A program made the position numbers and the translations under genes. Below, piece after piece: positions 42,098-62,708 of a DNA stretch of 64,000 bases. Position 1 is the stretch's first letter. Each line of letters starts with the position of its first letter. This stretch comes from Candidatus Nanopelagicales bacterium (lineage in GTDB: Bacteria > Actinomycetota > Actinomycetes > S36-B12), in assembly GCA_030728405.1 (NCBI GenBank), contig JANQZS010000093.1:24263-88262 (forward strand). Direction: 5' to 3'. The notes under the pieces were generated by a model. It worked only from the letters and a program-made list of their open reading frames with translations, was not told the DNA's origin and made no database searches.

Positions 42098-43507
42098 GTG
42101 AGTAGCCGGCGTTGGACCCGCACGCTCGCCGCCGTTACCTCCGGTGCCGTGGTCGCAGCCACGATGGTCGGAGCAGGGGTGACCGTGGTGATGGGACAAC
42201 TCGAAGGCAACATCACGGCTCTAGACGTCTCAGATCAAACGGGTGAGACGGCTGCCGAAACCACCTCGTTGGTGATTGACGAAGAAACAGGTGAGCAGAC
42301 TCCCTTCAATGTGCTGCTGATGGGCAGCGACACCCGGCAGGGTGCAGGTAACGAGGGATACGGCAGCCGCGCAAAATTTGGCGATGCCGAACGCTCTGAT
42401 ACCACCATCCTTTTGCATGTCAGCGCCGATCGCTCACGCGCCACCGCGGTGAGCATCCCTCGCGACACCTTGATCACCCTGCCGGTCTGCACCGACGCCA
42501 ATGGCAAAAACATCGGCGGTTACCAGGGCAAGTTCAATGAAGCTTTTATGATCGGTGGCCCAGGATGCGCGATGAAGGCCGTTGAGGAAATGTCTGGCCT
42601 TGATCTCACAAACTTCATGGTCATCGACTTTGGCGGATTCAAGCGCATCGTCGAAGCCCTCGACGGCGTGGAAGTGTGCCTCACCGAACCGGTGAACGAT
42701 TCACTCAGCGGCCTCAAACTCGATGCAGGCCTGCAAACGGTCAATGGAGAACAAGCCCTTGCATTTGTCCGTACTCGCAAGGAGCTGGGCGATGGCTCGG
42801 ACACTTCGCGCATCAGGCGCCAGCAAGCATTCTTATCCTCAATGGCGCGCAAAGTTCTTTCGGCCGGCACCCTACTCAACCCGGCAGCCCTCGTTGGAGT
42901 GCTCAATGCTGCTACCCAGTCTCTCACCGCAGATCCACAACTCGCGAACATCGAAAACTTGCGCGATCTCGCCGTCAGCATGCAAGATCTGCGCCCCGGC
43001 GACATCACGTTCACCACGATGCCGTGGTACCCAGCAGGCGATGGCGCAAACGTGTTACAGAACAAGAAAAAAGCTAAGCCGCTCTGGAACTCCATCAAGG
43101 AAGACACCGCATGGCCGCCCAAGAAGAGCACTGATCAACCTTTGCTGCGCGCCGAACCAGAAACGATTCGGGTCAAGGTACTTAATGGCACCGGCGTAAC
43201 AGGTGCGGGTAAAAAAGCAAAGAAACTGCTACGGGCAGAGGGGTTCAACGTCGTCGAGGTGGCCAATGCAAAGGATGGCGCCTACTCCGCCACCACGGTT
43301 CTCTACGACCCAGACTGGGATGTTTCGGCCAAAACGCTGATCTATTCCGCGAGTGCTGCGAGTGAAGCGGTACCCGGTCAGGGGCAGACCATGACGTTGG
43401 TCATCGGTCCGGACTTCACCGCGGCAAAGCCGGTGTCGATTTCTGCTGCACTGAAGGACAACACCGCAAACGTCAATACCGCAGACGAATCCTTCTGCGC
43501 TTCCTAG
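42098..43507 (+). CDS. LCP-family (LytR-CpsA-Psr) cell-wall glycopolymer ligase with a LytR_C domain
   Basis: An N-terminal TM anchor is followed by FNVLLMGSDTR...RSDTTILLHV...SIPRDT. The C-terminal part reads IRVKVLNGTGVTGAG. Confidence 0.88.
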   Translation: MSSRRWTRTLAAVTSGAVVAATMVGAGVTVVMGQLEGNITALDVSDQTGETAAETTSLVIDEETGEQTPFNVLLMGSDTRQGAGNEGYGSRAKFGDAERSDTTILLHVSADRSRATAVSIPRDTLITLPVCTDANGKNIGGYQGKFNEAFMIGGPGCAMKAVEEMSGLDLTNFMVIDFGGFKRIVEALDGVEVCLTEPVNDSLSGLKLDAGLQTVNGEQALAFVRTRKELGDGSDTSRIRRQQAFLSSMARKVLSAGTLLNPAALVGVLNAATQSLTADPQLANIENLRDLAVSMQDLRPGDITFTTMPWYPAGDGANVLQNKKKAKPLWNSIKEDTAWPPKKSTDQPLLRAEPETIRVKVLNGTGVTGAGKKAKKLLRAEGFNVVEVANAKDGAYSATTVLYDPDWDVSAKTLIYSASAASEAVPGQGQTMTLVIGPDFTAAKPVSISAALKDNTANVNTADESFCAS

Positions 43508-43511
43508 CTAG

Positions 43512-44375
43512 CTACACAACAGGTGGCCGACCGGCCTTTGACATCTCCCACACTGTTTTCCATTTGATCGGGCGACGCTCCACAGGCGGAGTGCTGATCC
43601 CCTCTCGCAAACCGGCAAACCATGCCGCCCGAGCTTTGGGGTCTCGCACGCGCACGGTGGTCAACACGACCCACGAACCCACATAGATGGGTTCAAGCAC
43701 CGCAGGCAAATTGCGCCGCGCCAACCACACCCGGTTGCGTGCGTTCATGCGATAGAACTCTGCATGCCTCAACGGATCAATCACCGGATGGTGCACCTGC
43801 AGATCGCCCGCATACCAAGCAACGTAGCCCGCATCCCAGACACGCCAGACCAAATCGATGCCCTCGTGCGCGTAGAAGAATTCACCCGGCCAGCCACCCG
43901 TTGCCGCAAACACTTCAGGCCTAATCGCGACGGCGCCCTCCCAAAGTGAAGTCGCTGGACCCGGCGTCGCAGGATCACCCACGCGCAGGCGCGGGACCCA
44001 ACGCCCAGGTGCTCGCCGCCCAGTGGGATCCACCACGCGTGGCTGAATCAAACCCAGCTGAGGATCTGCCTCGAAGCGTCGTCGTACTTCTGCCAGAAAG
44101 CCGGGGTTCGCAAGTTCGGCATCGTCATCGAGAAAAAACAGAAGGTCACCGTGAACCTGCGGAACCCCAGCATTTCGGCCAGCTGGGATGCCCACGTTTT
44201 CAGCGAGTCCCAATGCGCGCACCCCATCGGGCAGATCAACCGGTTCCCAGCCATTACCGACAACCACAATGTCGCAGGTCACGTCCTGTTGAGCGAGTAC
44301 TGAATCGATCGCCCTGCGCAACTCCGCTGGCCTGGTTCCCATCGTCAAAATGACGACGCCAAAATCTGACATCAA
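43512..44375 (-). CDS. Glycosyltransferase family 2. By position it is a WbbL-like candidate for the linkage-unit rhamnosyltransferase.
   Basis: The GT2 core reads VVILTMGTRPAELRRAIDSVLAQ...LFFLDDDAE. About 287 aa. It lies next to the LCP gene, like Rv3265c next to Rv3267. Confidence 0.65.
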   Translation of the reverse strand: MMSDFGVVILTMGTRPAELRRAIDSVLAQQDVTCDIVVVGNGWEPVDLPDGVRALGLAENVGIPAGRNAGVPQVHGDLLFFLDDDAELANPGFLAEVRRRFEADPQLGLIQPRVVDPTGRRAPGRWVPRLRVGDPATPGPATSLWEGAVAIRPEVFAATGGWPGEFFYAHEGIDLVWRVWDAGYVAWYAGDLQVHHPVIDPLRHAEFYRMNARNRVWLARRNLPAVLEPIYVGSWVVLTTVRVRDPKARAAWFAGLREGISTPPVERRPIKWKTVWEMSKAGRPPVV

Positions 44376-45178
44376 CGCAACCGACTCGAGGATAAAATGG
44401 CGAGCAGGTGACCAACAACTGTCACGAGCGCGAGAATCGCGAGAGCTCCGACCAGGAACTGAGTGGCACCGAGACCGCCCATTGCAGCATCAACAACAGA
44501 TGCAATAAACGCCAAAATCGTTAACTCCACGGAGTGGTATGCGCGATGGAACGGCACGAAACGTGCGAGAGATCGAAGCTTGCGCAAGCCACTTGATGAT
44601 GGCTCACCCACCTCGGCTTTGTCTTCAAGCCTTGGCATGTTGTTGTATGCCCGCGAGACATGCACCATGTCATTGAGCGACTTGTTGTAGAGAATCAACA
44701 CGGCAAGGAGTGCACCGATCAACGGCCACGGCGAATCGAGCCAGCCAGATTCGGGGAAGCCGGCAGCGCGCAGGCCCAATGCAATCGGGATCAGGCCTTC
44801 AGCGGTGTAATGACCAACCCGGTCAATAAACACACCCTTGGGGCTGGTGGTCTGGCGCCAGCGGGCAACCTCGCCATCACTGCAATCCCACAGCATCTGC
44901 ATCTGCCCCAACGCCATGGCAAGAAAACCACCCGGCAGACCAGGGATCAGGAGCGCGGCGGCCGCGCCCATCCCGGTGAACACCATGAGCCACGTGACCT
45001 GGTTGGCGCTGATAGACGTGCGCAGCAGAACCAAGGTCAGGTACGGCGAAATTTTGCGCAGGTACACGTCGGCAACCCAGTGCTCCGAGTTCTTCCGACC
45101 ACGCACAGCAGGTGGCTGACCTACTTCTCTGATTTCGGCAATGGTGGGCCGGGCCGGTCGAACGATCTTCTCGGTCAC
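44372..45178 (-). CDS. CDP-alcohol phosphatidyltransferase-family membrane protein (variant motif)
   Basis: The sequence DCSDGEVARWRQTTSPKGVFIDRVGH fits D-x2-DG-x2-AR-x8-G-x3-D-x3-H, with His where the family has its last Asp. The protein is multi-TM. Confidence 0.75.
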   Translation of the reverse strand: MTEKIVRPARPTIAEIREVGQPPAVRGRKNSEHWVADVYLRKISPYLTLVLLRTSISANQVTWLMVFTGMGAAAALLIPGLPGGFLAMALGQMQMLWDCSDGEVARWRQTTSPKGVFIDRVGHYTAEGLIPIALGLRAAGFPESGWLDSPWPLIGALLAVLILYNKSLNDMVHVSRAYNNMPRLEDKAEVGEPSSSGLRKLRSLARFVPFHRAYHSVELTILAFIASVVDAAMGGLGATQFLVGALAILALVTVVGHLLAILSSSRLR

Positions 45179-46932
45179 AACTCGCCTCCCACCACTCGAT
45201 TACTATCTCGATTACTCAGCAACCACTGGCCTGAGGCTACGGGTACGAAGAGGATGAACAGGGCAACGGCCATGACTAGCAGCCCGCTGGCGAACGTGGA
45301 AGCCGACCCTGCAAACAACACCATTGCCGCAACCACAATCAGCCGGCCGTCCCAACCCAGACCGGTCCACGCGATCCAACGGGGCACACTCGCGCCGTTC
45401 AACGCTCGGTACAAAGTGTCGTAGTGGTGGTAAGCCACGACAAAAAGCCAGACATAGCCCACCACTTCAGCATCAGGGAATAGCGCCAGCACGAGCGCAG
45501 TCACAGCGCCCAGTTCTAACAACCGAAGCAGTGCTGGGATCGCCCAACCCCAGCGCGCGCTGAGTATTCGAGTTCGCAACGTCTCCGGGAAAGCACTCGC
45601 GATCGTGCTTCCGAGTGGCCCCAGATCAATCTGTTCGCGCAAGAACTGCACGCCGCTGCTGACCAACGGCTCATGCCAGGTAAACGTTCGGAGTGTGCGA
45701 CCAACGAGCACGTAGCCCAATGCGATGAGCCCGGCGATCAACAATGCAACCAGTGCCCAGGCAGGGCCAGCCACGACTGCCACCACACTGATCAGCAGCC
45801 AACGCTCACCGATCGGCATATGGATTACCTTTTTCGCCCAGCGCACGATCGATGACCGATTCATGCTGCGTGAGGCCTGCATTGCCGTCGCTACAGAGAG
45901 CCCAGCACTGATTGCATTTCCATCCGAGGGGTCAAGCAGAGACCGCACGGGCACTATTGCCTCGCGCAGGCGCTGGACCCGGGCAAAGTCGTAATCACCC
46001 ATATGCCGGAATGTTTGAAGCGTTATCAACACGAGGACGAGCCACCACACATCGTTGCCCAAACGCGCAGCGCCCACCGCCAAACCGCCATACACCGCAA
46101 ACTCTTTAACGCGATCTGTTGAGGCATCGAGCCATGCACCCAGCGCGCTGAACTGCCGTGTAGCTCGGGCAACTTCGCCGTCAACGCAATCGATGATCAG
46201 ACTCAATTGCAGCAGTACTGCACCGAGGAGTAACCACCAAAAAGTACCCCCGGCAAATGCACACGCTGATGCGATACCCACCACAAAGGAAATCACCGTG
46301 ATGGTGTTGGGGGTAAGCCCGAGGGAAAGCGCTAGTCGCGTGAGAGGTTTCGAAGCTTTGCGCACTACGAAGGTGGAATAGAAACCATCATCGATCCGAT
46401 TCGCTTGCAAGCGACGGATCCGATCTACGGGAATGGCGTCAACGAGTTGCTGAGCATCAGGTGCATCTTGTGCACCGCGAAACCACGGAACATCTACCAA
46501 TCCCACCGCGCGCACCGCAACGCCACTGCGCACAAGCGCAACGAGCACTAGCTCTGGAAATTGAGCCGGTGGAACGATGAGTTCATCGTGCGCCACATGA
46601 TCGCGCAGTGTTGTCAGGGCAGCAGCTGCGCTCGGCGCATCGGCTACCGAAATGCGCACAACTCCAATGCTTCGATGCGTGGGCGCGCCCACGTTGTGAA
46701 AGCTCGTGCCCGCGCTGACCACTTGATGGTGCAGAACCCGCAGGTCACCTGATCCATCTGCAACGACCATCGCGCTAGTTCCAGCGAAGGAGTCTTCGGC
46801 CACAGGGCTGATCGCGGCAGCAGAGACCACAAGCTCATCTGCAATCACAATCACCGGCTCGGTGGCAGCACGCAGCCGGTCAATGAGCTCAGAAAGTAGC
46901 CCGATCGTCGAACTAGATGCCCGATCAGTCAC
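45175..46932 (-). CDS. CDP-alcohol phosphatidyltransferase-family protein with a ~170-aa soluble N-terminal domain and an extra C-terminal multi-TM extension
   Basis: The canonical motif is DCVDGEVARATRQFSALGAWLDASTD. The N-terminal region lacks a GxGxRL nucleotide loop. 585 aa. Confidence 0.75.
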   Translation of the reverse strand: MTDRASSSTIGLLSELIDRLRAATEPVIVIADELVVSAAAISPVAEDSFAGTSAMVVADGSGDLRVLHHQVVSAGTSFHNVGAPTHRSIGVVRISVADAPSAAAALTTLRDHVAHDELIVPPAQFPELVLVALVRSGVAVRAVGLVDVPWFRGAQDAPDAQQLVDAIPVDRIRRLQANRIDDGFYSTFVVRKASKPLTRLALSLGLTPNTITVISFVVGIASACAFAGGTFWWLLLGAVLLQLSLIIDCVDGEVARATRQFSALGAWLDASTDRVKEFAVYGGLAVGAARLGNDVWWLVLVLITLQTFRHMGDYDFARVQRLREAIVPVRSLLDPSDGNAISAGLSVATAMQASRSMNRSSIVRWAKKVIHMPIGERWLLISVVAVVAGPAWALVALLIAGLIALGYVLVGRTLRTFTWHEPLVSSGVQFLREQIDLGPLGSTIASAFPETLRTRILSARWGWAIPALLRLLELGAVTALVLALFPDAEVVGYVWLFVVAYHHYDTLYRALNGASVPRWIAWTGLGWDGRLIVVAAMVLFAGSASTFASGLLVMAVALFILFVPVASGQWLLSNRDSNRVVGGEL

Positions 46933-48083
46933 CGGGACTCGTCGTCCTTGCGAAAAATGGAGGAGATTCCTTGCTTGCGCGTAGCCCGCACCAACCGACC
47001 CGCGAGTTGGCGCGAGCTTGCTTCATCACGAGAGGCTGCGATCACCGATGCGAGTGCTTCGACCGCGGCCGCGATGGGCACCTCCGATGGTTCGGTTGCA
47101 ATTCCTGACGATGGCACACGAACGGCTAGCGCATTGAGGTTTCCGTAGACGTTCACACCAAGTGCACCAATAGTTTCAGCCGCCACAGCGCCCTGCTCTG
47201 CAGCAGCATCCAAAGCCCAGTCTGGTGTGACCAAGCGGGGCTCAGACAAATCCGGTTCGCGTCCCTCAACCATTCCCAACGCCACTCCGCGCCGCACCAA
47301 ACGCACGTAATCGTTCCACTGCATCTCGTTCTTTACCCGCGCATTGAGTTGCACCAAGAGTTCAGCTTCAGCGGCGGTCATGGATCGATTGCTGGTCAGG
47401 TCCATTCGCGAGGTCAACACCTCGGGTGGAACGCCCAGCAATTGCGCGAACGTCATGAACATGGCATCTCGCGGAACATCTTCAAGAACCAGCACGCTGA
47501 CATTCTCTGGCCCCACCGCAGCAGCCCACCGAGTCAGAACTGCGCCGTGATCGTGCCGCTTCCAGAAGGTTGGTGAAATACGTGCAGCGCCAGGGTTCGC
47601 GAAAACGTCCTCGAGCCATTTCTCATAGGGAGTGGTGAGACCGTACTTCAGGTATTGCTGCCACGATGAAGAAAGTAGTTTGCCCAAGTTGCGCAAGGTG
47701 ACCACCACCTGCACCCGCTCACCGCCCAGCCTCTCAACAATAGTGCAGGCGGTTTCTTCATCAGCTTCGCAGAAGAATTCACTGCTGATCACAACTCGAC
47801 CACTATGCGCATTGGCCCGCTTGGCCAGTTTGTCGAAGTGTTCGGTATCTAGGACCGCACCGCCCCGAGTGTTCCAACCCCACGGCCGACCGAGCACCGC
47901 GAGCGCTGCCCGGTGGTGGGCTTGCAATTTGCCGGGGTAACGAACACCGTCGGCCGCTAGATCGGTTCGGGCATCAGCCAAAGCCGCCTGAATAGCGGTG
48001 GTGCCGGTCTTGTGGACACCGATGTGCAGCAGCAGTCCATTGGGGGCAATCGCCGGTGCAGGAGTGAATCCGGCCTCAGACAT
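46929..48083 (-). CDS. Sulfotransferase-fold protein (putative PAPS-dependent)
   Basis: The 5'-PSB-like loop is HIGVHKTGTTAIQ. The 3'-PB-like segment is TLRNLGKLLSSSWQQ. No closer family assignment is possible by eye. Confidence 0.45.
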   Translation of the reverse strand: MSEAGFTPAPAIAPNGLLLHIGVHKTGTTAIQAALADARTDLAADGVRYPGKLQAHHRAALAVLGRPWGWNTRGGAVLDTEHFDKLAKRANAHSGRVVISSEFFCEADEETACTIVERLGGERVQVVVTLRNLGKLLSSSWQQYLKYGLTTPYEKWLEDVFANPGAARISPTFWKRHDHGAVLTRWAAAVGPENVSVLVLEDVPRDAMFMTFAQLLGVPPEVLTSRMDLTSNRSMTAAEAELLVQLNARVKNEMQWNDYVRLVRRGVALGMVEGREPDLSEPRLVTPDWALDAAAEQGAVAAETIGALGVNVYGNLNALAVRVPSSGIATEPSEVPIAAAVEALASVIAASRDEASSRQLAGRLVRATRKQGISSIFRKDDESR

Positions 48084-48088
48084 GCCCT

Positions 48089-48880
48089 CTACCCTAGGGG
48101 CGGCTCGTCGATTTTCCCTTGTGCGCGCGCCTCACGGAGCAGCTCGATCCCCTCATCCACACTGCCCGCAGCCTGAATCGAGCCATCGATAATCACAAGC
48201 GCACGATCACAAAACTCCCGGAGCGGCCGTGGGGCATCGGTTGCGACAAGGAAAGTAGTGCCTCGCTGCTTCAATTCGTACAGCTGCACCCAGCACTGTT
48301 CCTTGAATTCCCGCTCCCCCACGACCAACGCTCGATCAACCGCGTAGGCCCTGGCGTGGGTGGCCATCGCGATGGTCCATGCCATGCGCTGGCGGGTGAC
48401 TGCTGGAGCGGCACCGAGATATCGATCCATCAGCGAATCCACCCCGGCCTGCTCAGCGATCGAGGCCACCTGCGCGCCGATCTGATCAGGGGTCATTCCC
48501 AGCAGGCCGCCGAGTAAGTAAATGTTCTGCCGAATCGTGAACCTGCGATCCAAGGCCCGCGCGAGTTCAACCATCGGGATCACAGTGTCGCTGCGGCGCA
48601 CGTGGCCCTCATCGGGCATCAAAGTTCCAGCAGCCAACCGCAGTAATGCTTGGCGGGCCGGCAAGCCTCCACCGAGTACCGCAACCGATTCACCGGGCAG
48701 GACCGAAAACGATGCGCTGCGCAAAACCCAGACTTCTTCACGTCGGGAATCACCTGCCAGACGCCTGAGCCTTTGCCGTTTGCCCACACCCTTGCGACGT
48801 CGTCGTTTAGGTAGTGAAATTCCCACACCGGAAAACTCGATGGCCGCATCGAGTCCGCGCGTTAGCGATTGTCTCGCCAT
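48089..48880 (-). CDS. TagH-like ABC nucleotide-binding-domain homolog with degenerate catalytic motifs (pseudo-ATPase)
   Basis: It is collinear with B. subtilis TagH recalled from memory. GGGLPARQA stands in place of GxNGxGKST. AAPAV replaces the YSSGM signature. AYAVDR replaces ILIIDE. ATD replaces VSH. The gene lies next to a TagG-like permease. Confidence 0.7.
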   Translation of the reverse strand: MARQSLTRGLDAAIEFSGVGISLPKRRRRKGVGKRQRLRRLAGDSRREEVWVLRSASFSVLPGESVAVLGGGLPARQALLRLAAGTLMPDEGHVRRSDTVIPMVELARALDRRFTIRQNIYLLGGLLGMTPDQIGAQVASIAEQAGVDSLMDRYLGAAPAVTRQRMAWTIAMATHARAYAVDRALVVGEREFKEQCWVQLYELKQRGTTFLVATDAPRPLREFCDRALVIIDGSIQAAGSVDEGIELLREARAQGKIDEPPLG

Positions 48881-48881
48881 C

Positions 48882-49700
48882 TCACGCCTCCTTCAAAATG
48901 CGCGGTTCGATTCGACGGAAAACGACGACGCCAGCAATAAAGAGCACCACGGCAACAGTTATGGAAATTCCAAATGCAAGAACCGAGTTCACCTCTTCAG
49001 GCCAAAATCCCACCCGATACAGACCGAAAATTCCCACGAGCGGGTTGAGTTCGGCGAGCGTACGAAATTCTGCGGGGATATTCGATACCGAATACAACAC
49101 CGGTGAGAGATAGAACATCGCACGCAGCACGATCTTGACAATGCGCGCCAAATCAGGAATCACTACAGCACTTGCTGCAATTAACAGCGCCAGCCCATAC
49201 ATCAAGAAGAACTGCACAATGATCGCGACCGGGAACAACACGATGAGTGGTCCAGGCCAAAAGCCAGTCACTGCAATGGCAATCAGAATCACCGGGAGTG
49301 AAAAGATAAACTCCACCGTCGAGACCAACACCACCCGCAAAACCCACAATTGAGTGGGCAACAGACTTACCCGCAGTTGACCACCATTCTTGGCAAAAAC
49401 CTTGGTCGAGGCGTTAATCCCCTTGGAAAACCACCACCACGGCAAAATCGCGAGGGATAGGAAGAGTAGATACGGCTGCAGACCGAGGCCGCGGGGGCCC
49501 AACAGGATCGAGAAAACGAACCACAGGACCACCGACATGCCTAATGGCTCAAGGAGAGTCCAGAGGTAGCCCAGCCGAAACTTGGAATAGCGTCGCTGAA
49601 GGTCCCGTTGGACCAACATGCGGAGCACCTGACGGTGCTCCCAGATAGAACGCACGCGGTTTACGATAGGGCACCTACACTCATTGACCCCTGTTGCCAC
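48882..49700 (-). CDS. ABC-2 type polysaccharide/teichoic-acid export permease (TagG-like)
   Basis: The N-terminal motif is LVQRDLQRRYSKFRLGYLWTLLEP, followed by six hydrophobic segments. Confidence 0.8.
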   Translation of the reverse strand: MATGVNECRCPIVNRVRSIWEHRQVLRMLVQRDLQRRYSKFRLGYLWTLLEPLGMSVVLWFVFSILLGPRGLGLQPYLLFLSLAILPWWWFSKGINASTKVFAKNGGQLRVSLLPTQLWVLRVVLVSTVEFIFSLPVILIAIAVTGFWPGPLIVLFPVAIIVQFFLMYGLALLIAASAVVIPDLARIVKIVLRAMFYLSPVLYSVSNIPAEFRTLAELNPLVGIFGLYRVGFWPEEVNSVLAFGISITVAVVLFIAGVVVFRRIEPRILKEA

Positions 49701-49772
49701 GAACTCCGTGCAGCGAATACCGAAAGATCGGACCGCAACGTGCCCGCTAACACGCCTACGCGTGAGTCGTGG

Positions 49773-51050
49773 ATGGCGCGACGCTCGAAGTGGTTAGCCC
49801 GCGGTGTTGCGAACCGGCTTCGTGACTTTGGCGCGGCCGAAGCTGAGGGCTTTGAACTCAACGATGTGCCACAGGCGGATATCTGCCTTTACTTCGCTGA
49901 TCAGCCAAGCAAGCTCTACCAACTCACCCAGTGGTTGCCGATATTCGAGGCGCGCACCGATATCACCACCGTGATCGCGGTGCGTCATGTGGAAACCTAC
50001 GAGGCCCTCATTGGTACAACTCCGCTGAAGATCTTGCTGGTTCCTCGCTATGAAGTGCTGATGGCGATGTACGACCGCGCGAACTTTCACGCCGTCATTT
50101 ATGTCAATAACGGTTGGACGAATTTCCAATCGCTCGCATTCCAGCAGGCTGTTCACATCCATGTGAATCACGGTGAGTCCGACAAGATCTGCATGGTCAG
50201 CAATCAGGCCAAGGCCTACGACAAAGTATTTGTTGCAGGTGAAGCCGCCGTTCGTCGCCACCAAGCTGCCCTGGCGTGGTTTGACACCAGCCACCTGGTG
50301 CGCGTTGGTCGCCCGCAGCTTGATCTTGAGATTCCAAACCCATTAAGCGCTCATGATGGTCCGACCATCACGTACGCCCCCACCTGGGAAGGCGAGGACG
50401 ACGCCAACAACTACACCTCCCTCGATCTCTATGGTGTCTCGATCATCACCGCAGCCCTGGCCCAGCCAGGTGCCCGCGTGATCTACAAGCCCCATCCCCG
50501 TGTTCCCTCCTCCGATGATGCCGGCGTGCGGGCCGCTCACACTGAAATTGTGCGCATGATCAAGGCAGCTACCGCAGCAAATCCTCAGGCAGGTCACGCG
50601 GTGATGATCAAAGGAAACGTTCTCGGCGTGATTAGAGGAACTGACGTCATGATCGCCGATGTTTCAAGTGTCACGCTCGATCATTTGTACCTGCGCCCGG
50701 ATGCCCCCATCGTGCTGTGTGATCGCCGCACCGAACGCGATCTGCTGCTCACCGATGCGCCCCTTGCTGCTGCTGTTCACGTTCTTGACAACAACAACGT
50801 GGCAACCCTTCGCACTGATCTTGCACAGCTCATCGCGCACGATTCCACCCGCGATCAACGGCACGCAATGCGCGACTTCTACTTCGATGGCATCGCCCCT
50901 GGTGCCAGCACGGAGCGCTTCTGGAAAGCACTCGACACCGCCATGCACGAACACGATGCAGCGATTGGCAACCTGAGCCGCATCCGCGTAGTGCAAGACC
51001 TGAATGATCCCAACCAGACCAGCGAGCAGCAGCCGAAGGAGCACGCATGA
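49773..51050 (+). CDS. CDP-glycerol glycerophosphotransferase (TagB/TagF) family protein
   Basis: Family motifs ITYAPTWEG and VIYKPHPRV are present. I chose the start at MARRSKW (49773) because the listed ORF start overlaps the divergent permease gene. Confidence 0.7.
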   Translation: MARRSKWLARGVANRLRDFGAAEAEGFELNDVPQADICLYFADQPSKLYQLTQWLPIFEARTDITTVIAVRHVETYEALIGTTPLKILLVPRYEVLMAMYDRANFHAVIYVNNGWTNFQSLAFQQAVHIHVNHGESDKICMVSNQAKAYDKVFVAGEAAVRRHQAALAWFDTSHLVRVGRPQLDLEIPNPLSAHDGPTITYAPTWEGEDDANNYTSLDLYGVSIITAALAQPGARVIYKPHPRVPSSDDAGVRAAHTEIVRMIKAATAANPQAGHAVMIKGNVLGVIRGTDVMIADVSSVTLDHLYLRPDAPIVLCDRRTERDLLLTDAPLAAAVHVLDNNNVATLRTDLAQLIAHDSTRDQRHAMRDFYFDGIAPGASTERFWKALDTAMHEHDAAIGNLSRIRVVQDLNDPNQTSEQQPKEHA

Positions 51051-51739
51051 GCGTCAATGCCGTCATTCTCGCCGCCGGAATGGGCACCCGCCTTGGTAAG
51101 CCATGGCCAAAGCCGTTGACCCCACTCGCTGATGGGCGCACCATCATGGCCCAGCAGATGGACAACATGCAGACCACATTTGGCTCCGACCTGCGCGTCA
51201 CCACAGTTGTCGGCTTCAAACTTGAGCTGATCCTCGAGGCTTTCCCCAACGTTTCCTACGTATACAACGAGGCATACGACCAAACGAACACCAACAGGTC
51301 ACTGCTCAAAGCTCTCCAACTATCGGGAGATGGCGGCGTGCTCTGGATGAACGGCGACGTAGTGTTTGACCCCGCCCTTCTCGAACGAGTGCGCCCCCTC
51401 ATGGAAGCCAATCAATCATTCATCTGCGTCAACACTGCTGTTGTTGGCGACGAAGAAGTGAAATACACGGTCGACGCTGATGGAAACGTCGCCCTGCTTT
51501 CCAAGCAGGTTGAGAACGCACTCGGCGAGGCCGTCGGTATCAACTACGTCGCATCACAAGACAAGGAAACCTTGATCACTTGGCTCGCTGCCTGCGCAGA
51601 CTCCGATTACTTTGAGCGCGGCATTGAGCTCGCCATCGACAACGCTGGGCTCGCAGTTACCCCTGTAGACATCTCCGACCTATTCGCCGTGGAAGTTGAC
51701 TTCGAAGAGGACCTCTCGCGCGCAAACGCACACCTGTAA
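51047..51739 (+). CDS. Sugar/alcohol-phosphate nucleotidyltransferase (LicC / cytidylyltransferase-like)
   Basis: The N-terminal loop is AVILAAGMGTRLGKPWPKPL. 230 aa. The gene is translationally coupled (ATGA) to the TagF-like gene. Confidence 0.65.
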   Translation: MSVNAVILAAGMGTRLGKPWPKPLTPLADGRTIMAQQMDNMQTTFGSDLRVTTVVGFKLELILEAFPNVSYVYNEAYDQTNTNRSLLKALQLSGDGGVLWMNGDVVFDPALLERVRPLMEANQSFICVNTAVVGDEEVKYTVDADGNVALLSKQVENALGEAVGINYVASQDKETLITWLAACADSDYFERGIELAIDNAGLAVTPVDISDLFAVEVDFEEDLSRANAHL

Positions 51740-51832: not shown

Positions 51833-51875
51833 GCGGGTGGGCTTAGCGGGTGGGCTCAGCGGGTGGGCTCAGCGG
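51833..51875. repeat. 13-bp direct tandem repeat, 3.3 copies
   Basis: The copies read GCGGGTGGGCTTA, GCGGGTGGGCTCA, GCGGGTGGGCTCA, then GCGG. The TCA of the third copy (51869-51871) is the TGA stop of the minus-strand GT4 gene. Confidence 0.9.
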
Positions 51876-52975
51876 TCGATGCGAGCAAATAATCGCTCCC
51901 ACTGATCAACCACGCGATCCAGTGTGAATTTCTGAGCGCGTTCGCGAGCATTCCTGGCCAATTGCTCTCGACGCGCCTCGTCTTCGATCAGGAAGCGGAT
52001 CGCTGACGCTAACTCGGGAACATCACCGCGGGGCACTAGTTCAACTGCAGGAGAGCTCTCATCACCAGCAAGAAGTCGAACCCCACTTGAGCAATCCGTT
52101 GCCACCGACGGCAGTCCACTAGCCATGGCTTCCATGAGAGCGAGCGGCAGCCCTTCTGTTCGAGATGGCAGAACAAAAACTCCCAACTCGGAGAAGATCG
52201 ACGAAACATCAGCAACGGGTGCCATCATGCGCACTCCACGCAAAGCCGCCGCGCGTTCGCGGATGTGGGCCTCGTCTGGCCCGCTACCCACCAAGAGCAA
52301 TTCCCAGGTGGGTACTTCGTCAACAATCAATGACCACGCTTCAAGTAGCTCCTGCACACCCTTTTCTTCGGAGAACCGGCTGATGCAGCCCACCGTTCGA
52401 GAAGTCGCTGCAACGGGATGTTCTGGCCACCAGGCAAGTGGGTTGGGAAGGGCCACGGTGTTGTTGAGCCCGGCCTGCTGCCACGCCTGCGCATCAGATG
52501 GAGTGAGGAACACCGACGCATCGCATGGCGCATAGGTATCGAGAACCCTGCGTAGGTCACGTCCTTGGGCTGCTGCTGCGAAAGCGCCGTGGTACTGGCC
52601 CACCGTGCGCCATCCGGTCACGTCAATCCCTGATGCAATTTCCATGGCCCACACTTGAGCCGTGATGAGCACGCCCGTCGGTCCACTCCCGAGGGCATCA
52701 GCAAGCTTTGCGCGCGCTTCAGTGCGTAAACGGCTACGCAGCCCTTTCACTGATGCATTCGAATCCCCCGCCGGCCACACCTCACTCATCAAAACTCGAC
52801 GGCGATAGGCAGGTGCCTCGTGGTACTCGTGGATAGGGGGTTGCGGGGTGACGCCTATCAACTCAACGTCAAAGCCACGCTCCGCAAAACCTTGAGCCAG
52901 TACGTGCACCACCCGCTGGGCGCCGCCAACCTCATCAATGTTGTTGGCCATCAACACGATCCGCTGATGACTCAT
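51869..52975 (-). CDS. Glycosyltransferase family 4 (GT-B fold)
   Basis: The N-terminal part reads VGGAQRVVHVLAQGFAERG. The C-terminal part reads PSRTEGLPLALMEAMASGLPSVATD. Confidence 0.85.
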   Translation of the reverse strand: MSHQRIVLMANNIDEVGGAQRVVHVLAQGFAERGFDVELIGVTPQPPIHEYHEAPAYRRRVLMSEVWPAGDSNASVKGLRSRLRTEARAKLADALGSGPTGVLITAQVWAMEIASGIDVTGWRTVGQYHGAFAAAAQGRDLRRVLDTYAPCDASVFLTPSDAQAWQQAGLNNTVALPNPLAWWPEHPVAATSRTVGCISRFSEEKGVQELLEAWSLIVDEVPTWELLLVGSGPDEAHIRERAAALRGVRMMAPVADVSSIFSELGVFVLPSRTEGLPLALMEAMASGLPSVATDCSSGVRLLAGDESSPAVELVPRGDVPELASAIRFLIEDEARREQLARNARERAQKFTLDRVVDQWERLFARIDR

Positions 52976-55041
52976 GGGCTCTGGACCTGTCCAAAGAGAA
53001 CTGATTCAGCCTGGGCAACCAATTGCTCCAAGGTGTTGGCGTACTCCATTGCATCAATGGGATCAAGACCGTACTCAAGTGCGCCGCGCTCCGGTCGAAA
53101 CTTCAGGACTGGGATTTTGTGGGCATGAGCCCGATTGAGAGCGTCCGTGGCATCACCGCACACCAGCGCAATTGCATCTTGGCCTGTGATGAGTTCGTCG
53201 AATTGGTCGACCGAAATGGATCGCACACAACCCCGCATTCGGGTCGGCACCGCGATCGGATCAGCAAAGTTCGGATCAGCAGAATTCTGCACCACCAATA
53301 GATAGGTCCGATCCCCCAAGCCTTTAATCCATGCGGAGAGTTCAACACTCGTCGATGAAGCAGGGCCAAGGCCACGGCGTGGTTCCATTGCCAGCACTAC
53401 AGCTAAGCGATCAGCGGGGAGTTCCACGCGCTCTGGCGATTGCTGGGTGTGGTGGGATCGGGCGCGAAGTCTCCGGAATGCTGAGCCCAAGGAACGGGTC
53501 CGCCCGGATGCATGCCACGTGACTCCAGCTCGATCAGCGGGGGCAAAATCAATGGCTTCAGATCCGCCCCAGATCTCATCAACATGGCCAACCTGAACGC
53601 CGACAGGCGAGAGCGCTCGAACAGCAGTCAAGTTCTCGATGCCGTTGAGTGTTATCGCTATGCCGACCCAACCACCAAGTTCCGAACGCAACACATGATT
53701 GCTGCTCAAGTGTCCAGAACCACGCCAGGTGATCACCCCAGCTGACTCGGACACCCGCCTCAACTGCAATTCCCACCGCCGACCTTTGGAGGCAGAGAGG
53801 ACCACAGTTGCCTCGTTCACACTTTCGAGATCACTAGCAAAATCCACAGTTGTGATTTCGGTGTCGATTCCGGCTGAAGTTGGCTCCATCCGCTGGACCA
53901 CGTGCAGGTAGCGGCGTTGAGAGAAAGGAATACCCAGCAATTGCATCGAGGTCACATCAAGCCAGTAGCGCGATGACCTGTGCATCAGCTCCGTCTCATC
54001 TGGCGCCCGCCAGAATGTGCGACCTGCTTCTCGCACCAAAACGGAATCAACCACGCTCGCCCAGTTTTCATATCGCATCGCCGAACGCAAGAGGTTGAGG
54101 TCATCAGTGAGCAGCCCGTACATCGCAACGCGCACCAAAGGGCGCAATGCATCGAATGATTCCACCGATTGCTCTGCAATGTAGGGCACCAAGAGCCCCA
54201 TCAGCTCTCGAGCGGTCTGCTCATCCGCGCTGGCGATGGTACTCAAGTACAAATAGGCCTCGTGCCGAAGAAACTTTTCTTCTTTCGCTTCCTTGATCGC
54301 ACTATTGCTGCCGATCAATTCATCCATCAAGCGATTCACGGTGAGGCGATCCTCTAGATTTCTGCGCTCATGGCGACTCTGGGTAATTGATGCACTCGCC
54401 TTAGTGACGTACCAGTAATACACGTCTTCCGGGATCACGCCGATGATCCTGGCCCGCAAGAAACATTGAAGGGTGAACGGTTGGTCCTCGAAAAGCACGC
54501 CCTCGGGGAATCGAATCGAGTTGCTATTGAGAAAATCGCGCCGGTAGATCTTGTTTACGGCGATGGTGTCATAAAGCAGATCAGTGCAGTCATTGAGTGA
54601 ATTGACGACCAATCGTTTGCTATGCAACTCCGGGCGCCAGCGCACCCGTTCACCCTTTTCACCAACCACCCGGACAGCAGTGCCGCACACCAGATCGGCA
54701 CCCCATTCCTCTGCTGCACTCAGCAGATTCATGCACGCATGTTTCTCATATTCATCATCAGAGTCTGCGAACATGACGTATGAGCCACGGGCTGCATCGA
54801 GGCCGGCGTTGCGCGGGGCGCTGCAGCCTCCAGAGTTGCGGGGCAATCGGATCGACTTAACCCGAGAATCCCGCTGGCACACTTCAGAAATAACCTCAGC
54901 AGTGGAATCTGTAGAGGCATCATCAACAATGATCAACTCCAGATCGTGCAGAGTTTGACCAAGAATTGATTCGATAGCTCGCGGGAGTCTCGCAGCATCG
55001 TTATAGCCGATCAGGATCACAGTGACTAGCGGATCGCTCAT
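52972..55041 (-). CDS. Glycosyltransferase family 2 with a ~400-aa C-terminal domain of unknown function
   Basis: The GT2 core reads VTVILIGYNDAARLPRAIESILGQT...IIVDDASTD...FADSDD. I could not assign the C-terminal half. Confidence 0.75.
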   Translation of the reverse strand: MSDPLVTVILIGYNDAARLPRAIESILGQTLHDLELIIVDDASTDSTAEVISEVCQRDSRVKSIRLPRNSGGCSAPRNAGLDAARGSYVMFADSDDEYEKHACMNLLSAAEEWGADLVCGTAVRVVGEKGERVRWRPELHSKRLVVNSLNDCTDLLYDTIAVNKIYRRDFLNSNSIRFPEGVLFEDQPFTLQCFLRARIIGVIPEDVYYWYVTKASASITQSRHERRNLEDRLTVNRLMDELIGSNSAIKEAKEEKFLRHEAYLYLSTIASADEQTARELMGLLVPYIAEQSVESFDALRPLVRVAMYGLLTDDLNLLRSAMRYENWASVVDSVLVREAGRTFWRAPDETELMHRSSRYWLDVTSMQLLGIPFSQRRYLHVVQRMEPTSAGIDTEITTVDFASDLESVNEATVVLSASKGRRWELQLRRVSESAGVITWRGSGHLSSNHVLRSELGGWVGIAITLNGIENLTAVRALSPVGVQVGHVDEIWGGSEAIDFAPADRAGVTWHASGRTRSLGSAFRRLRARSHHTQQSPERVELPADRLAVVLAMEPRRGLGPASSTSVELSAWIKGLGDRTYLLVVQNSADPNFADPIAVPTRMRGCVRSISVDQFDELITGQDAIALVCGDATDALNRAHAHKIPVLKFRPERGALEYGLDPIDAMEYANTLEQLVAQAESVLFGQVQSP

Positions 55042-56015
55042 CGTGAATTCCGAAGTTCGAGTGCCCGATTGATTAACACTTCTGCACGAGCATCAAAACT
55101 GTTTTCGCGAGCCACCCGTGCTGCCGCAATCAAACGATGAGCCCGATCAGGAAATACTTCGTCGCGATCAGAGTTCAGGATTTTTGCGAGATCAGCTACG
55201 TTCGCATACGTGACCACCGCATCACCAAATACCTCGGAAAGTCCTGCAGCTTCATCCGAAAGCACCCGTGCCCCACTTGCCACCGCATCAAAGAGTCGAT
55301 TGGACAAGAACCCTTCAGTGGCCATGTCTGGCCAGTGATCGTTAAGAACCACACCAGCGCTGGCGTAGGCAGCCGGCAACTCGGGATTGGGCAGGAACTC
55401 CCCGCAGATCACTTCCTCAGGAATAAGCCCCGACCAACCCACACCAAACACACTGAGGTTCACCCCGGAAGCTAGGGCATCGCGCACAACCGGACGAAAC
55501 TCACCACGAGTGGAACCAACAAAAAGCACATCGAAACCGGTATCGGGGGCAGCTGCATCGGGGTTGAATCGACGCGGATTGGTGGCCTGCAATAGCGGCG
55601 TGATTGGCACCCCGAACTCACCACTTGCAGCCCGACTCCAACTGTTACTCGCTGCAAAGTTCGCATCGAAGGTGGCGGGCTCATCTGCCCCGACCAATTC
55701 AGGATGCGAAATCACCCACTGCATCCACACTGGTCCAGGAGAGTTCGGGGTCTTCGGGACGTCGCGCGGATCAACTCGGCGCAACCCGCGCAGCGCGAGT
55801 ACCACGTCGTCTTCAGCACGCTTGGCACTCGTAGCGCCGCCGCGGAACACCACGCTCGCTTCTTGGCCCTGCCGTTGCAGTGCATCAACAAGATCGCGCG
55901 CGAACCAGGTGTCGCCCCATTGATCTCCCGCTTCACCCTTGGGAGATGCGACCACCACGGACCAGCGCAGGGCTCGTTCTCGCCCAGCACCGGTCAGTTT
56001 GGAAAGCAGGCCCAC
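55038..56015 (-). CDS. Glycosyltransferase with a CgeB-like / Glyco_trans_1_2-type C-terminal domain
   Basis: The sequence reads DVLFVGSTRGEFRPVV...GFLSNRLFDAVASGARVLSD. I chose the GTG at 56015, 4 nt after the upstream stop. The listed longer ORF overlaps the upstream gene. Confidence 0.55.
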   Translation of the reverse strand: MGLLSKLTGAGRERALRWSVVVASPKGEAGDQWGDTWFARDLVDALQRQGQEASVVFRGGATSAKRAEDDVVLALRGLRRVDPRDVPKTPNSPGPVWMQWVISHPELVGADEPATFDANFAASNSWSRAASGEFGVPITPLLQATNPRRFNPDAAAPDTGFDVLFVGSTRGEFRPVVRDALASGVNLSVFGVGWSGLIPEEVICGEFLPNPELPAAYASAGVVLNDHWPDMATEGFLSNRLFDAVASGARVLSDEAAGLSEVFGDAVVTYANVADLAKILNSDRDEVFPDRAHRLIAAARVARENSFDARAEVLINRALELRNSR

Positions 56016-56019
56016 GTGA

Positions 56020-58610: not shown

Positions 58611-58651
58611 GCGAACACTGTAGGGGGCAGAGCTTGGCTACCCTTGGGGTT

Positions 58652-59971: not shown

Positions 59972-59985
59972 GCGCCGGCGCACAG

Positions 59986-60420
59986 ATGAACCGCGAGGCT
60001 CTCTACGGCAGCGCCGAGGTGATTGATGCGGTGCTCGCCATGGAACTGTGGTTCGTGGTTGGCCTCGGGGATAACCCAGAGCGGGTGGCTCACCATGTGG
60101 CCCACGAAATGCAGGCCAAGGGCAAGAAAATCGTGCCGATCCACCCGCGCACAGAAATAGTGCACGGTGAACAAGGGTTCCGAACCATTGCCGAAGCTGC
60201 AGCCGTTCACGGCGCACCCGATGTAGTGGATTGCTTTGTGCGTTCATCTCGCGCTGGTGAATTCGCCGACCAAGCAATCAGCGCCGGAGCTAAAGCCGTG
60301 TGGTTTCAGCTCGGTGTGAGCGATGAAGCCGCTGCGCAACGCGTGCTTGATGCAGGCCTGTTAATGGTGATGGATACCTGTCCGCTGATCGAATGGCGCA
60401 GGCGCGGAGTCTCGATATAA
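59986..60420 (+). CDS. CoA-binding domain protein (YccU/YneT-like)
   Basis: FVVGLGDNPERVAHHV...VPIHPR...VVDCFVRS...GAKAVWFQLG. Confidence 0.7.
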   Translation: MNREALYGSAEVIDAVLAMELWFVVGLGDNPERVAHHVAHEMQAKGKKIVPIHPRTEIVHGEQGFRTIAEAAAVHGAPDVVDCFVRSSRAGEFADQAISAGAKAVWFQLGVSDEAAAQRVLDAGLLMVMDTCPLIEWRRRGVSI

Positions 60421-60432
60421 AAAGTGTGCGCT

Positions 60433-62062: not shown

Positions 62063-62139
62063 AGCCGAACTCTAGTTCCCCACAACAACAGCGGCAGAGC
62101 ACCAGCGCCCGGCCGCACCCGCTCTCTAGACTCACCTTC

Positions 62140-62670: not shown

Positions 62671-62708
62671 AAGCGCCGATTTAGTTGCGCGCTTTCATAC
62701 TCGCTGGT

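Follow-up and report, generated by a model that had tools for sequence, protein, structure and literature searches.

The gene at positions 48089..48880 (minus strand) of the window, which is the whole 64-kb stretch of DNA analyzed here, encodes a 263-residue protein with the fold of the Wzt/TagH-type ABC NBD and, judged from its ORF, alignment, AF2 model, and Foldseek matches, without any nucleotide-handling motif. We refer to this protein as the pseudo-NBD. On balance, we consider it probable, although far from settled, that it is a catalytically dead and probably nucleotide-free Wzt/TagH-type descendant, kept as the obligate cytoplasmic partner of a type V permease. The best reading of its role would be that of a noncatalytic subunit, both structural and substrate gating, of a type V ABC-fold translocon in which the energy source for export is unresolved. 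The retention under selection of a dead subunit suggests that a cell wall polymer exporter may work without the usual ATP motor.

The ORF is intact and begins with an ATG, and its product has an exact-sequence match at NCBI (MDP4804896.1), labeled as a "hypothetical protein." A phmmer search of PDB sequences aligns the pseudo-NBD with the Wzt NBD from A. aeolicus (PDB codes: 6m96 and 6an5) without gaps over 198 residues (E 4e-28), and TarH (PDB code: 6jbh) is also homologous in the PDB sequence search (E 2e-20). The AF2 model (pLDDT 89) contains the RecA-like core and the helical subdomain, being A. aeolicus Wzt its best Foldseek match (PDB codes: 8dne/7k2t; E 5e-21, TM 0.78). The matches to WzmWzt, TagH, and TarH range from E 5e-21 to 1e-16, with TM values of 0.73 to 0.79, and more than 1000 ABC NBD chains are matched by the model. 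Thus, the homology to TagH-type ATPases proposed in the sequence-only reading holds, and the three strings quoted there are all found in the protein (FTIRQNIYLLGGLLGMTPDQI at residues 114-134, VGEREFKEQC at 187-196, and GTTFLVA at 207-213). The profile scores are low: Pfam ABC_tran (PF00005) gives 14 bits (E 0.081, residues 54-182), under the gathering score of 25, and the NCBIfam equivalog cut-offs are unmet for NF050108 (66.9 versus 400 bits), NF010065 (65.3 versus 538 bits), and NF010066 (48.1 versus 320 bits).

Motif positions were set by the gapless phmmer alignment to Wzt (6m96/6an5), and the clade counts refer to the 119 relatives examined. On this alignment, every ATP-contacting motif is lost, that is, the A-loop, the Lys and Ser/Thr of Walker A, the signature, the catalytic Glu, and the His of the H-loop. 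The Walker A remnant (residues 70-78; 48647..48673, minus strand) reads GGGLPARQA where Wzt has GPNGAGKST, with Lys changed to Arg and Ser/Thr to Gln. Among the relatives, the position of the Walker Lys (76) is Arg in 112, Gln in six, and His in one, and never Lys, position 77 being Gln in 54, Glu in 44, Arg in nine, and Thr in eight. The signature, YSSGM in Wzt, is reduced to AAPAV (residues 157-161; 48398..48412, minus strand) and is followed by R163 and Q164, newly invariant and near-invariant in the clade, respectively; the SSG positions are occupied by P, A, L, or V across the clade, and S-x-G appears in no member. In the Walker B remnant AYAVDR (residues 178-183; 48332..48349, minus strand), the Asp is kept and Arg stands in place of the catalytic Glu, the stretch FIIDEA of Wzt corresponding to YAVDRA at residues 179-184. 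Position 182 is Asp in 79 relatives and Glu in 35, and position 183, that of the catalytic Glu, is Gln in 68, Arg in 36, and Glu in 12. Finally, the H-loop, canonically SH, is TD (residues 214-215; 48236..48241, minus strand), with Asp at the His position in 118 of the 119 relatives and Glu in the remaining one.

With the positions fixed in this way, the replacement of Walker A, signature, Walker B with its Glu, and H-loop stands as it had been described from the sequence alone. Moreover, no intact Walker A, Walker B, or signature is placed at another point of the protein by the phmmer alignment or by the Pfam ABC_tran alignment, this last one proposed earlier as a check of the motif positions and covering residues 54-182. 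Two conserved elements accompany these losses: the D-loop is retained as LVVGE (residues 185-189; 48314..48328, minus strand; LAVGD in Wzt), with V187 and G188 invariant, and the Q-loop/helical-subdomain block (residues 102-128) is conserved in the clade. We infer that the pseudo-NBD would neither bind nor hydrolyze ATP, a prediction for which there are no biochemical data.

The loss of the A-loop is a further motif loss, beyond those in the sequence-only reading. At its former position, residue 23 (48812..48814, minus strand), the pseudo-NBD has Leu, and this column is M/L/I/V in 119/119 clade members versus F/Y in 31 of the 35 nearest canonical relatives. The A-loop aromatic immediately precedes the gate-helix insertion (PMC13018209), so that the corresponding column is residue 23, and W51 was rejected as an alternative A-loop aromatic. 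Also, the only GK dipeptide of the protein (G33-K34) was discarded as a P-loop; it sits in an Arg-rich loop and is followed by Arg, and position 34 is Arg in 110 of the 119 relatives.

The pseudo-NBD defines a whole family, monophyletic and found in uncultured Nanopelagicales-like Actinomycetota. The clade is recovered in 100/100 NJ bootstraps, a result that holds when the motif columns are removed, and its stem is the longest of the NJ tree (0.49 versus a median of 0.034). It has 25 invariant and 40 near-invariant columns, those newly invariant being R28, R29, R40, G43, R81, T86, P102, R117, N119, R163, W168, D215 (118/119), and R226. Purifying selection on the pseudo-NBD is as strong as on the adjoining permease, with dN/dS values of 0.046 to 0.088 for the former and 0.036 to 0.070 for the latter. 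These data bear on the possibility that the gene is decaying, as the remnant of an exporter no longer functional, or that its motifs reflect sequencing or assembly errors. Such an explanation would fit Pfam and NCBIfam scores far under their cut-offs and also the fact that the pseudo-NBD is the least conserved of three neighboring products, with 44 to 57% identity across loci, compared with 59 to 75% for the permease and 54 to 76% for the sulfotransferase-like protein. Nonetheless, the ORF is intact in each assembly seen, identical motif states are present in more than 100 independent assemblies and recur in those at 84 to 97% identity (L004, L006, L077, and L078), and the same kinds of replacement are shared by 119/119 of the more distant relatives; synteny is fixed, and the gene is preceded by a strong Shine-Dalgarno sequence. 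We regard decay or error as highly improbable and, as far as sequence data allow, refuted. This answers the assembly-error objection raised in the sequence-only reading, carries out the survey of homologs that was suggested there for clade conservation and purifying selection, and supports its claim that the gene is maintained rather than decaying.

A hyper-cationic gate helix, absent from the sequence-only reading, is an additional feature of the family. It corresponds to residues 24-47 (PKRRRRKGVGKRQRLRRLAGDSRR; 48740..48811, minus strand), defined from the AF2 model and the clade columns, where a helix (residues 35-42) is located between strands 14-28 and 45-60 and aligns with the insertion of canonical relatives. 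R28, R29, R40, and G43 are invariant, and the motif is RRRRRKGxGRRQRLRR. The median number of Arg and Lys residues is 13 of 24 in the clade versus 7 of 24 in 40 canonical relatives, and the net charge is +11 versus +4; the gate helix is about three times more cationic than in canonical NBDs, which is a gain of the clade. The gate helix/loop insertion after the A-loop strand was defined previously (PMC13018209), and the Wzm-Wzt of mycobacteria requires its gate helix, which touches the lipid-PP-sugar substrate (PMC13018209, PMC13649706).

The partner of the pseudo-NBD is a type V ABC-2 permease (Wzm/TagG-like; 48882..49619, minus strand) of 245 residues when counted from Met28, the start used in its relatives, the ORF extending to 49700. 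It matches Pfam ABC2_membrane (2.5e-13) and, among PDB sequences, Wzm (6m96_B, 1.3e-15), KpsM, and TarG (5e-12), as expected for the intact TagG-like permease noted before. The permease stop codon (TGA, 48882-48884) is separated by one spacer base from the ATG of the pseudo-NBD at 48880, and a Shine-Dalgarno sequence (AAGGAGG; 48887..48893, minus strand), read from the sequence within the last permease codons, lies 6 nt before this ATG. The pseudo-NBD is separated from the next gene by a 5-nt gap, and three 4-nt overlaps come after it, so that the one-nucleotide spacing and the tight gene chain described earlier are confirmed. From the spacer and the internal Shine-Dalgarno sequence, the pseudo-NBD is predicted to be translationally coupled to the permease. 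Moreover, the pair is kept in every locus where the upstream sequence is present.

A different possibility is that the exporter is still ATP driven, through a canonical Wzt/TagH-type ATPase whose gene lies in another part of the genome and which would associate with the permease, either taking the place of one pseudo-NBD, in a heterodimer, or acting on the complex. The E178Q (catalytic-dead) variant of the mycobacterial Wzt is nonfunctional in vivo, and therefore homologous machines need hydrolysis (PMC13018209); there are also well-known ABC exporters in which one site is degenerate (PMC7756269). However, no second NBD is found in the 64-kb window, where tblastn with Wzt matches only 48161-48742 and the pattern GxxxxGK[ST] occurs only once, at 58997, within a UDP-glucose dehydrogenase gene; this agrees with the sequence-only claim that the island holds no other NBD. 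Likewise, none of the 77 related loci has a canonical NBD at 10 kb or less from the gene. In addition, the 1-nt spacing and the Shine-Dalgarno sequence inside the permease gene argue for 1:1 coproduction of both subunits. A heterodimer would present one site with a dead signature, AAPAV spoiling the site of the partner, and the other with dead Walker A, Walker B, and H-loop, and therefore no consensus site, whereas the known degenerate-site transporters retain a fully consensus one (PMC7756269). A trans-acting ATPase seems to us unlikely, although it is not excluded, as the DNA inspected is limited to 64 kb here and to the 10-kb flanks of the gene in the relatives.

The locus corresponds to the core LCP-ligase-linked cell wall glycopolymer cluster, with 13 genes in fixed order. 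Over the 31 loci where gene presence was counted, the permease, the pseudo-NBD, a CDP-alcohol phosphatidyltransferase-family membrane protein (268 residues; 44372..45178, minus strand), a GT2 glycosyltransferase identified by Pfam (287 residues; 43512..44375, minus strand), and an NTP_transf_3 nucleotidyl (cytidylyl) transferase (230 residues; 51047..51739, plus strand) are present in all 31. The LCP (LytR-CpsA-Psr) glycopolymer-to-peptidoglycan ligase (42098..43507, plus strand; Pfam 2.2e-45, TIGR00350 146 bits with a cut-off of 62) is found in 30. An optional four-gene module includes a 384-residue protein with no Pfam family (46929..48083, minus strand), present in 27 of the 31 loci. Also in the optional module are a 585-residue membrane protein (45175..46932, minus strand), to which domain searches assign CDP-alcohol phosphatidyltransferase and DUF5941 domains, and a divergently transcribed TagF-like CDP-glycerol glycerophosphotransferase-family protein (49608..51050, plus strand), recognized by domain and homolog searches; the true start of this last one is probably about 45 to 58 codons inside the ORF, its relatives being 422 to 436 residues long. 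A run of glycosyltransferase genes (51869..57012, minus strand), encoding GT4, GT2 (689 residues), Glyco_trans_1_2, and GT2 (330 residues) proteins, belongs to the same cluster. The 384-residue protein gives nothing significant by profile search of PDB sequences or Pfam at E 10 and was identified by fold search only: the AF2 model (pLDDT 82, built with database homologs) matches the sulfotransferase 3rnl (E 4e-5), NDST1, and 3-OST-3 by Foldseek, and the sequence has invariant HxGVHKTGTT and TLRN..SSWQQYLKYG motifs. The 120 matches listed for DUF5941 all come from uncultured-lineage sequences of the same clade as the pseudo-NBD. The nearest canonical NBD (P0306) has an ABC-2 permease upstream, on a contig of 3.5 kb that is too short for cluster comparison, and an Rfam scan of the 64-kb window gave no match.

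The composition of this cluster is relevant for a further reading, in which the pseudo-NBD would be a ligand-sensing regulatory subunit whose remodeled pocket (P-loop remnant, R76, R163, and D215) binds a phospho- or sulfo-ligand other than ATP, for instance a CDP-alcohol, PAPS/PAP, pyrophosphate, or the polymer itself, with binding-driven dimerization gating the channel without hydrolysis. The sulfotransferase-fold protein and the CDP-alcohol enzymes of the operon would make or use such ligands, and the D-loop, a dimer-interface motif, is retained. Furthermore, G70 is invariant, G73 and G75 are retained in most members, and conservation extends to the new residues that point to the former site (R76 in 112/119, R163/Q164, and D215 in 118/119). 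On the other hand, Pro is found at P-loop position 74 and Leu or Ala replace glycines in the pseudo-NBD and many relatives, the most divergent members have lost even the P-loop glycines (ARRRVTKEA, TRQQRLRAV), the sulfotransferase-like gene is missing in four of the 31 loci that have the pseudo-NBD, and there is no evidence of a ligand. Such a sensor remains possible, but we regard it as doubtful.

Returning to the reading of a noncatalytic structural and gating subunit, the following steps are inferred. The pseudo-NBD would dock on the coupling helix of the permease and dimerize, and therefore the channel would stay assembled, the conservation of residues 102-128 being only indirect support for this docking. 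The Arg-rich gate helix would capture, at the cytoplasmic entrance, the pyrophosphate-lipid or a polyanionic polymer bearing phosphate or sulfate. A network of side chains (R76, Q/E/R77, D/E182, Q/R/E183, D215, and R163) would fill the former Mg-ATP pocket in place of the nucleotide, and translocation would therefore not be powered by ATP hydrolysis at the pseudo-NBD. Positions 77 and 183 covary at the former Mg site (Q/R in 36, E/Q in 35, and R/E in nine), a covariation that may stem from only three or four phylogenetic events. Against a filled pocket, a G-x-x-G-x-G-R pattern is kept in most members, so that an anion hole for phosphate or sulfate may persist. Directionality could come from consumption by the LCP ligase downstream, from coupling to synthesis by the membrane CDP-alcohol phosphotransferases, or from both. 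A stronger version, in which a type V ABC-fold translocon exports a lipid-linked cell wall glycopolymer without any ATP hydrolysis, the NBD being a nucleotide-free scaffold and polyanion-capturing gate and the drive coming from CDP-alcohol phosphotransferase synthesis and/or LCP capture, can be advanced only tentatively, and no type V ABC polymer exporter that dispenses with ATP is known to us. Regarding the three possibilities offered in the sequence-only reading, a defunct exporter is effectively excluded, an ATPase recruited from elsewhere is disfavored but not excluded, and a non-ATP-driven or regulatory role remains as the best reading.

Wzm-Wzt, TarGH, and KpsMT are the paradigm of ATP-driven export of lipid-linked polymers and are drug targets, and the lineage described here is among the most abundant freshwater bacteria. 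The pseudo-NBD family looks like a natural experiment, in which a motor domain without ATP-handling residues has long been under strong selection beside a conserved permease. If export without hydrolysis is true, the NBD and its gate helix would have scaffold and gating roles separable from the motor one, polymer translocation would have an alternative energization, and the ABC polymer-exporter class would have its first naturally ATP-independent member. The family also adds to the envelope biology of uncultured Nanopelagicales-like freshwater Actinomycetota, and its public labels, "ATP-binding protein" or "hypothetical protein," are corrected. In the literature, nothing relevant was found on degenerate or pseudo Wzt/TagH, pseudo-ATPase ABC proteins, DUF5941, or Nanopelagicales teichoic acids.

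Among known systems, both subunits are matched best, in sequence and in structure, by Wzm-Wzt (WzmWzt from A. aeolicus, Rv3783/Rv3781 from Mycobacterium). The type V permease, the NBD fold, the gate-helix insertion between the first two strands, the D-loop, and the adjoining permease and NBD genes in a lipid-linked cell wall polymer cluster with an LCP ligase are shared, and the Q-loop is degenerate in the pseudo-NBD as throughout the Wzm-Wzt-type subfamily. However, the pseudo-NBD has no C-terminal carbohydrate-binding domain, its ATP-binding and catalytic motifs are all replaced, its gate helix carries +11 instead of +4, and it reaches 67 bits against the 400-bit equivalog cut-off of galactan Wzt. 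TagGH/TarGH also have a homologous NBD and permease, and the TagF-like glycerophosphotransferase, the cytidylyltransferase-like enzyme, and the LCP ligase of the cluster resemble teichoic acid pathways. To our knowledge, the classical tag/tar pathways lack membrane CDP-alcohol phosphatidyltransferase-family and sulfotransferase-fold proteins like those of this cluster. Moreover, TagH and TarH, in contrast to the pseudo-NBD, carry consensus motifs, and they are active as ATPases. TarH carries a gate loop and not a helix (PMC13018209). Finally, NBD motifs are also naturally degenerate in TM287/288, TmrAB, CFTR, ABCC1, and Pdr5, where the domain is kept for a structural or mechanical role (PMC7756269), although in these transporters one fully consensus hydrolyzing site is kept and ATP is still bound at the degenerate one. 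These heterodimeric exporters have the type IV fold, whereas the pseudo-NBD and its permease correspond to type V. The cluster has no NBD gene other than that of the pseudo-NBD, whose Walker and signature halves are both degenerate, and therefore its homodimer would have no consensus site.

The ORF at 48089..48880 (minus strand) encodes a Wzt/TagH-fold product with its former ATP motifs replaced (hereafter pseudo-NBD; NCBI MDP4804896.1, annotated as "hypothetical protein"), encoded beside a standard type V (Wzm/KpsM/TarG) permease. A phmmer comparison with PDB sequences aligns the pseudo-NBD without gaps over 198 residues to the A. aeolicus Wzt NBD (6m96/6an5, E 4e-28), followed by TarH (2e-20), mycobacterial Wzt/RfbE (7e-14), and then TagH. 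In the Wzt alignment, Walker A goes from GPNGAGKST to GGGLPARQA, the signature from YSSGM to AAPAV, Walker B with the catalytic Glu from FIIDEA to YAVDRA, and the H-loop from SH to TD. This agrees exactly with the sequence-only reading for all four motifs; its claims of an intact ORF (263 aa, ATG start) and of no other NBD gene nearby also hold, as tblastn with Wzt finds no second NBD in the 64-kb window, matching only the pseudo-NBD ORF. The sole GxxxxGK[ST] in the window is part of the UDP-glucose dehydrogenase gene. Moreover, the A-loop position, F/Y in 31 of the 35 nearest canonical relatives, is Leu23; in the Wzt subfamily, this aromatic lies directly ahead of the gate-helix insertion (PMC13018209). 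The AF2 model, with 32 relatives as input alignment, is confident (pLDDT 89, pTM 0.85), its best structure matches being WzmWzt, TagH, TarH, and M. abscessus Wzt (E 5e-21 to 1e-16, TM 0.73-0.79). By descent, and presumably in how it works, the pseudo-NBD is a counterpart of Wzt/TagH, the NBD in type V polymer exporters. Pfam ABC_tran gives 14 bits, below the gathering score of 25, and the top-ranked NCBIfam equivalogs, galactan Wzt/RfbE (E 1.5e-18) and TagH (4e-18), score ~67 bits against cut-offs of 400-538. Because it fails both sets of thresholds and the catalytic features, "ATP-binding protein" is not a suitable annotation for it. In JGI, the label "ABC-2 type transport system ATP-binding protein" is given to its relatives.

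Among 5.8 billion proteins searched, no fewer than 120 are full-length relatives that share 50-57% identity with the pseudo-NBD, canonical NBDs being far more distant (at most ~25-30%). Motif states were counted in 119 of these relatives: the A-loop position is M/L/I/V in 119/119, the Walker Lys is R112/Q6/H1 (K in none), the Walker Ser/Thr Q54/E44/R9/T8, the signature SSG positions P/A/L/V, the Walker B Asp D79/E35, the catalytic Glu Q68/R36/E12, and the H-loop His D118/E1. In an exhaustive HMMER scan of 1.84 billion cluster representatives, the family comprises ~15 clusters at 50% identity, all without the motifs and all with an N-terminal RRRxxGxGRRxRLRRxAGE motif; it scores at least 282 bits, whereas the closest canonical NBDs with a single domain reach ~195 bits and read GxNGQGKST / HYSSGM / LVDEV / SH. 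In the most divergent members, the P-loop glycines are gone too (ARRRVTKEA, TRQQRLRAV). A neighbour-joining tree recovers the family as monophyletic in 100/100 bootstraps, which persists when the A-loop, Walker A, signature, Walker B, and H-loop columns are taken out, with its stem being the longest internal branch (0.49 versus a median of 0.034). The question raised by the sequence-only reading, whether the substitutions are conserved clade-wide, is answered affirmatively, and the pattern fits one ancient motif loss followed by maintenance. Just under the family in profile score lies a sizeable group of database proteins from outside the window (P0251-P0299, ~770-860 aa), each with a tandem pair of Wzt/TagH-like NBDs that are both fully canonical (GPNGAGKST, YSTGM, DE, and SH in both halves).

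The same reading had judged the gene maintained rather than decaying, and Nei-Gojobori estimates over the window and four relatives (84-97% identity) bear this out: dN/dS is 0.046-0.088 (0.06-0.09 where saturation is lowest, in pairs with dS 0.3-0.5), indicating purifying selection, with 0.036-0.070 for the permease and 0.025-0.051 for the downstream gene. Such selection and the replication in independent assemblies exclude a relic or artefact, an explanation left with virtually no credence. The permease gene (48882..49619, minus strand) ends with a stop codon (48882-48884) one base from the pseudo-NBD ATG (48880) and contains an AAGGAGG Shine-Dalgarno 6 nt before it; the 1-nt spacing recurs in distant relatives. 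These data demonstrate that the pseudo-NBD is translationally linked to the permease and co-encoded with it, and it is expressed as a member of the transporter operon. Across loci, its identity is 44-57% versus 59-75% for the permease. It is the faster-evolving partner, which is unusual for an ABC system and would be expected if catalytic constraints were lost and structural ones kept.

At the other end of the permease gene, the mechanical ORFs 48882-49700 (-) and 49608-51050 (+) overlap head to head. Since start calls in relatives shorten both genes (permease of 245 aa from Met28 of the ORF, start 49619; TagF-like protein of 422-436 aa), the true divergent intergenic/promoter region is probably ~49620-49780. 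In L004, a related locus with 97% identity, the TagF-like and NTP_transf_3 proteins are called as a single 705-aa protein.

An alignment of 32 clade members contains 25 invariant and 40 near-invariant columns, among them new residues where the active site used to be (R76, R163, Q164, and D215). Also, the interface elements are kept: the D-loop (V187-G188) and the Q-loop/helical-subdomain block P102...R117-Q-N119-I-Y121...G128. At the former Mg-ATP site, residues 77 (Walker Ser/Thr position) and 183 (catalytic Glu position) covary, the combinations being Q/R in 36 sequences, E/Q in 35, and R/E in 9. This suggests that the two side chains now pair where Mg-ATP was; the pairing is an inference, and the covariation may reflect only a few phylogenetic events. 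A remodelled pocket could also serve a regulator that is gated by a ligand without hydrolysis, as most members keep a partial P-loop; however, in the window protein it is degraded, with Pro at position 74 and with glycines replaced by Leu73 and Ala75, and we regard this role as unlikely.

The AF2 model places a helix at residues 35-42, between the first two β-strands, the counterpart of the "gate helix" inserted in Wzt. In the mycobacterial Wzm-Wzt, this helix swings up to the TMD interface and touches the lipid-pyrophosphate-sugar substrate, and its deletion kills function (PMC13018209, PMC13649706). Residues 24-47 of the pseudo-NBD family hold a median of 13/24 Arg/Lys (net +11), whereas the 40 nearest canonical NBDs hold 7/24 (net +4). 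R28, R29, R40, and G43 are invariant in the clade alignment.

Among 185,579 species-representative genomes scanned, the pseudo-NBD was located at 70 loci, nearly all in MAGs labelled Candidatus Nanopelagicales, the uncultured source of the window, or unclassified Actinomycetota/Actinomycetes; many are from lake samples, and none of the 70 is from a cultured isolate. The names "Bifidobacterium breve" and "Rubrivirga sp." in the titles of several MAGs (loci L048, L062, L063, L024, L030, L033, and others) clash with the rest of the family distribution and look like mislabels.

The pseudo-NBD belongs to a 13-gene cluster; 31 loci extending 8 kb or more to each side served to check its gene order. 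The permease, the pseudo-NBD, a 268-aa CDP-alcohol phosphatidyltransferase-family protein, a 287-aa GT2, NTP_transf_3, and a 330-aa GT2 are present in 31/31, and an LCP ligase, a GT4, and Glyco_trans_1_2 in 30/31. Genes for a sulfotransferase-fold protein, a CDP-OH_P_transf+DUF5941 protein, a TagF-like protein, and a 689-aa GT2 (45175-48083, 49608-51050, and 52972-55041 in the window) occur in 27/31 and are jointly absent from the other four (L065, L066, L067, and L073). This joint presence or absence, with the core always kept, points to a fixed core to which an optional module, for decoration or for a second polymer, can be added. The cluster is flanked by AdoHcyase, manA, pmm, DUF5719, 1185-aa GT2, cofD, F420 ligase, ManC-like, amidase/SpoIID, and LCP ligase genes (23247-43507) and, on the far side, by UDP-Glc dehydrogenase, purK, and birA genes (58484-63979). 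This order resembles what we take to be a conserved actinobacterial region, Rv3255c-Rv3279c of M. tuberculosis, holding wbbL1 and Lcp1; on that presumed match, we interpret the locus as the one for the core glycopolymer that the organism links to peptidoglycan.

The sulfotransferase-fold protein (384 aa, 46929-48083, minus strand) belongs to no Pfam/NCBIfam family and is "hypothetical" in all annotations. It has ~870 database homologs, a mean column identity of 71-73%, and invariant HxGVHKTGTT and TLRN..SSWQQYLKYG blocks, and its AF2 model matches the sulfotransferases 3rnl (E 4e-5), NDST1, and 3-OST-3. A role in sulfating or capping the exported polymer is possible. NTP_transf_3 (51047-51739, plus) and the two CDP-alcohol phosphatidyltransferase-family proteins (44372-45178 and 45175-46932, both minus) weakly match NF041135, the archaeal bifunctional IPCT/DIPPS (E 1.5e-7, 3e-6, and 1.6e-19, respectively, all far under the cut-off). 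Together they match its two halves, a hint that the wall polymer may be supplied by a CDP-inositol or CDP-polyol pathway split between separate proteins.

No canonical NBD is found within 10 kb in any of 77 related loci. A canonical ATPase acting in trans could energise the exporter, but the dead signature of the pseudo-NBD would cripple the partner's site as well, and permease and pseudo-NBD genes are coupled 1:1; we consider this improbable. What the data establish is an NBD fold retained under purifying selection, with all nucleotide-handling residues replaced, the replacements conserved, and no second NBD nearby. Because the D-loop and the helical-subdomain block are invariant, the pseudo-NBD is inferred to still dock on the permease and dimerise. 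It would then act as a non-catalytic scaffold and gate, with the Arg-rich gate helix capturing either a pyrophosphate-lipid or a polyanionic polymer, in a cluster encoding phospho-alcohol transferases and the sulfotransferase-fold protein. Export would not be powered by ATP hydrolysis at the pseudo-NBD, and energy and directionality would have to come from polymer synthesis, extracytoplasmic LCP ligation, or a partner yet unidentified. We favor this scaffold and gate reading, with only modest assurance. Wholly ATP-independent polymer export through a Wzm-type channel is more doubtful, although not excluded.

Our literature search found no paper describing this family. For a specialist, the surprise is that strong selection throughout a whole lineage preserves an entirely dead motor in a core cell-wall exporter, which provides a natural system in which the scaffold and gating roles of an NBD can be told apart from its motor role. 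In known transporters with degenerate ABC sites (TM287/288, TmrAB, CFTR, ABCC1, and Pdr5), one consensus site is always kept and ATP is still bound at the degenerate one (PMC7756269). In contrast, both composite-site halves are degenerate in the pseudo-NBD, the only NBD gene of the cluster, so that its homodimer would have no consensus site.
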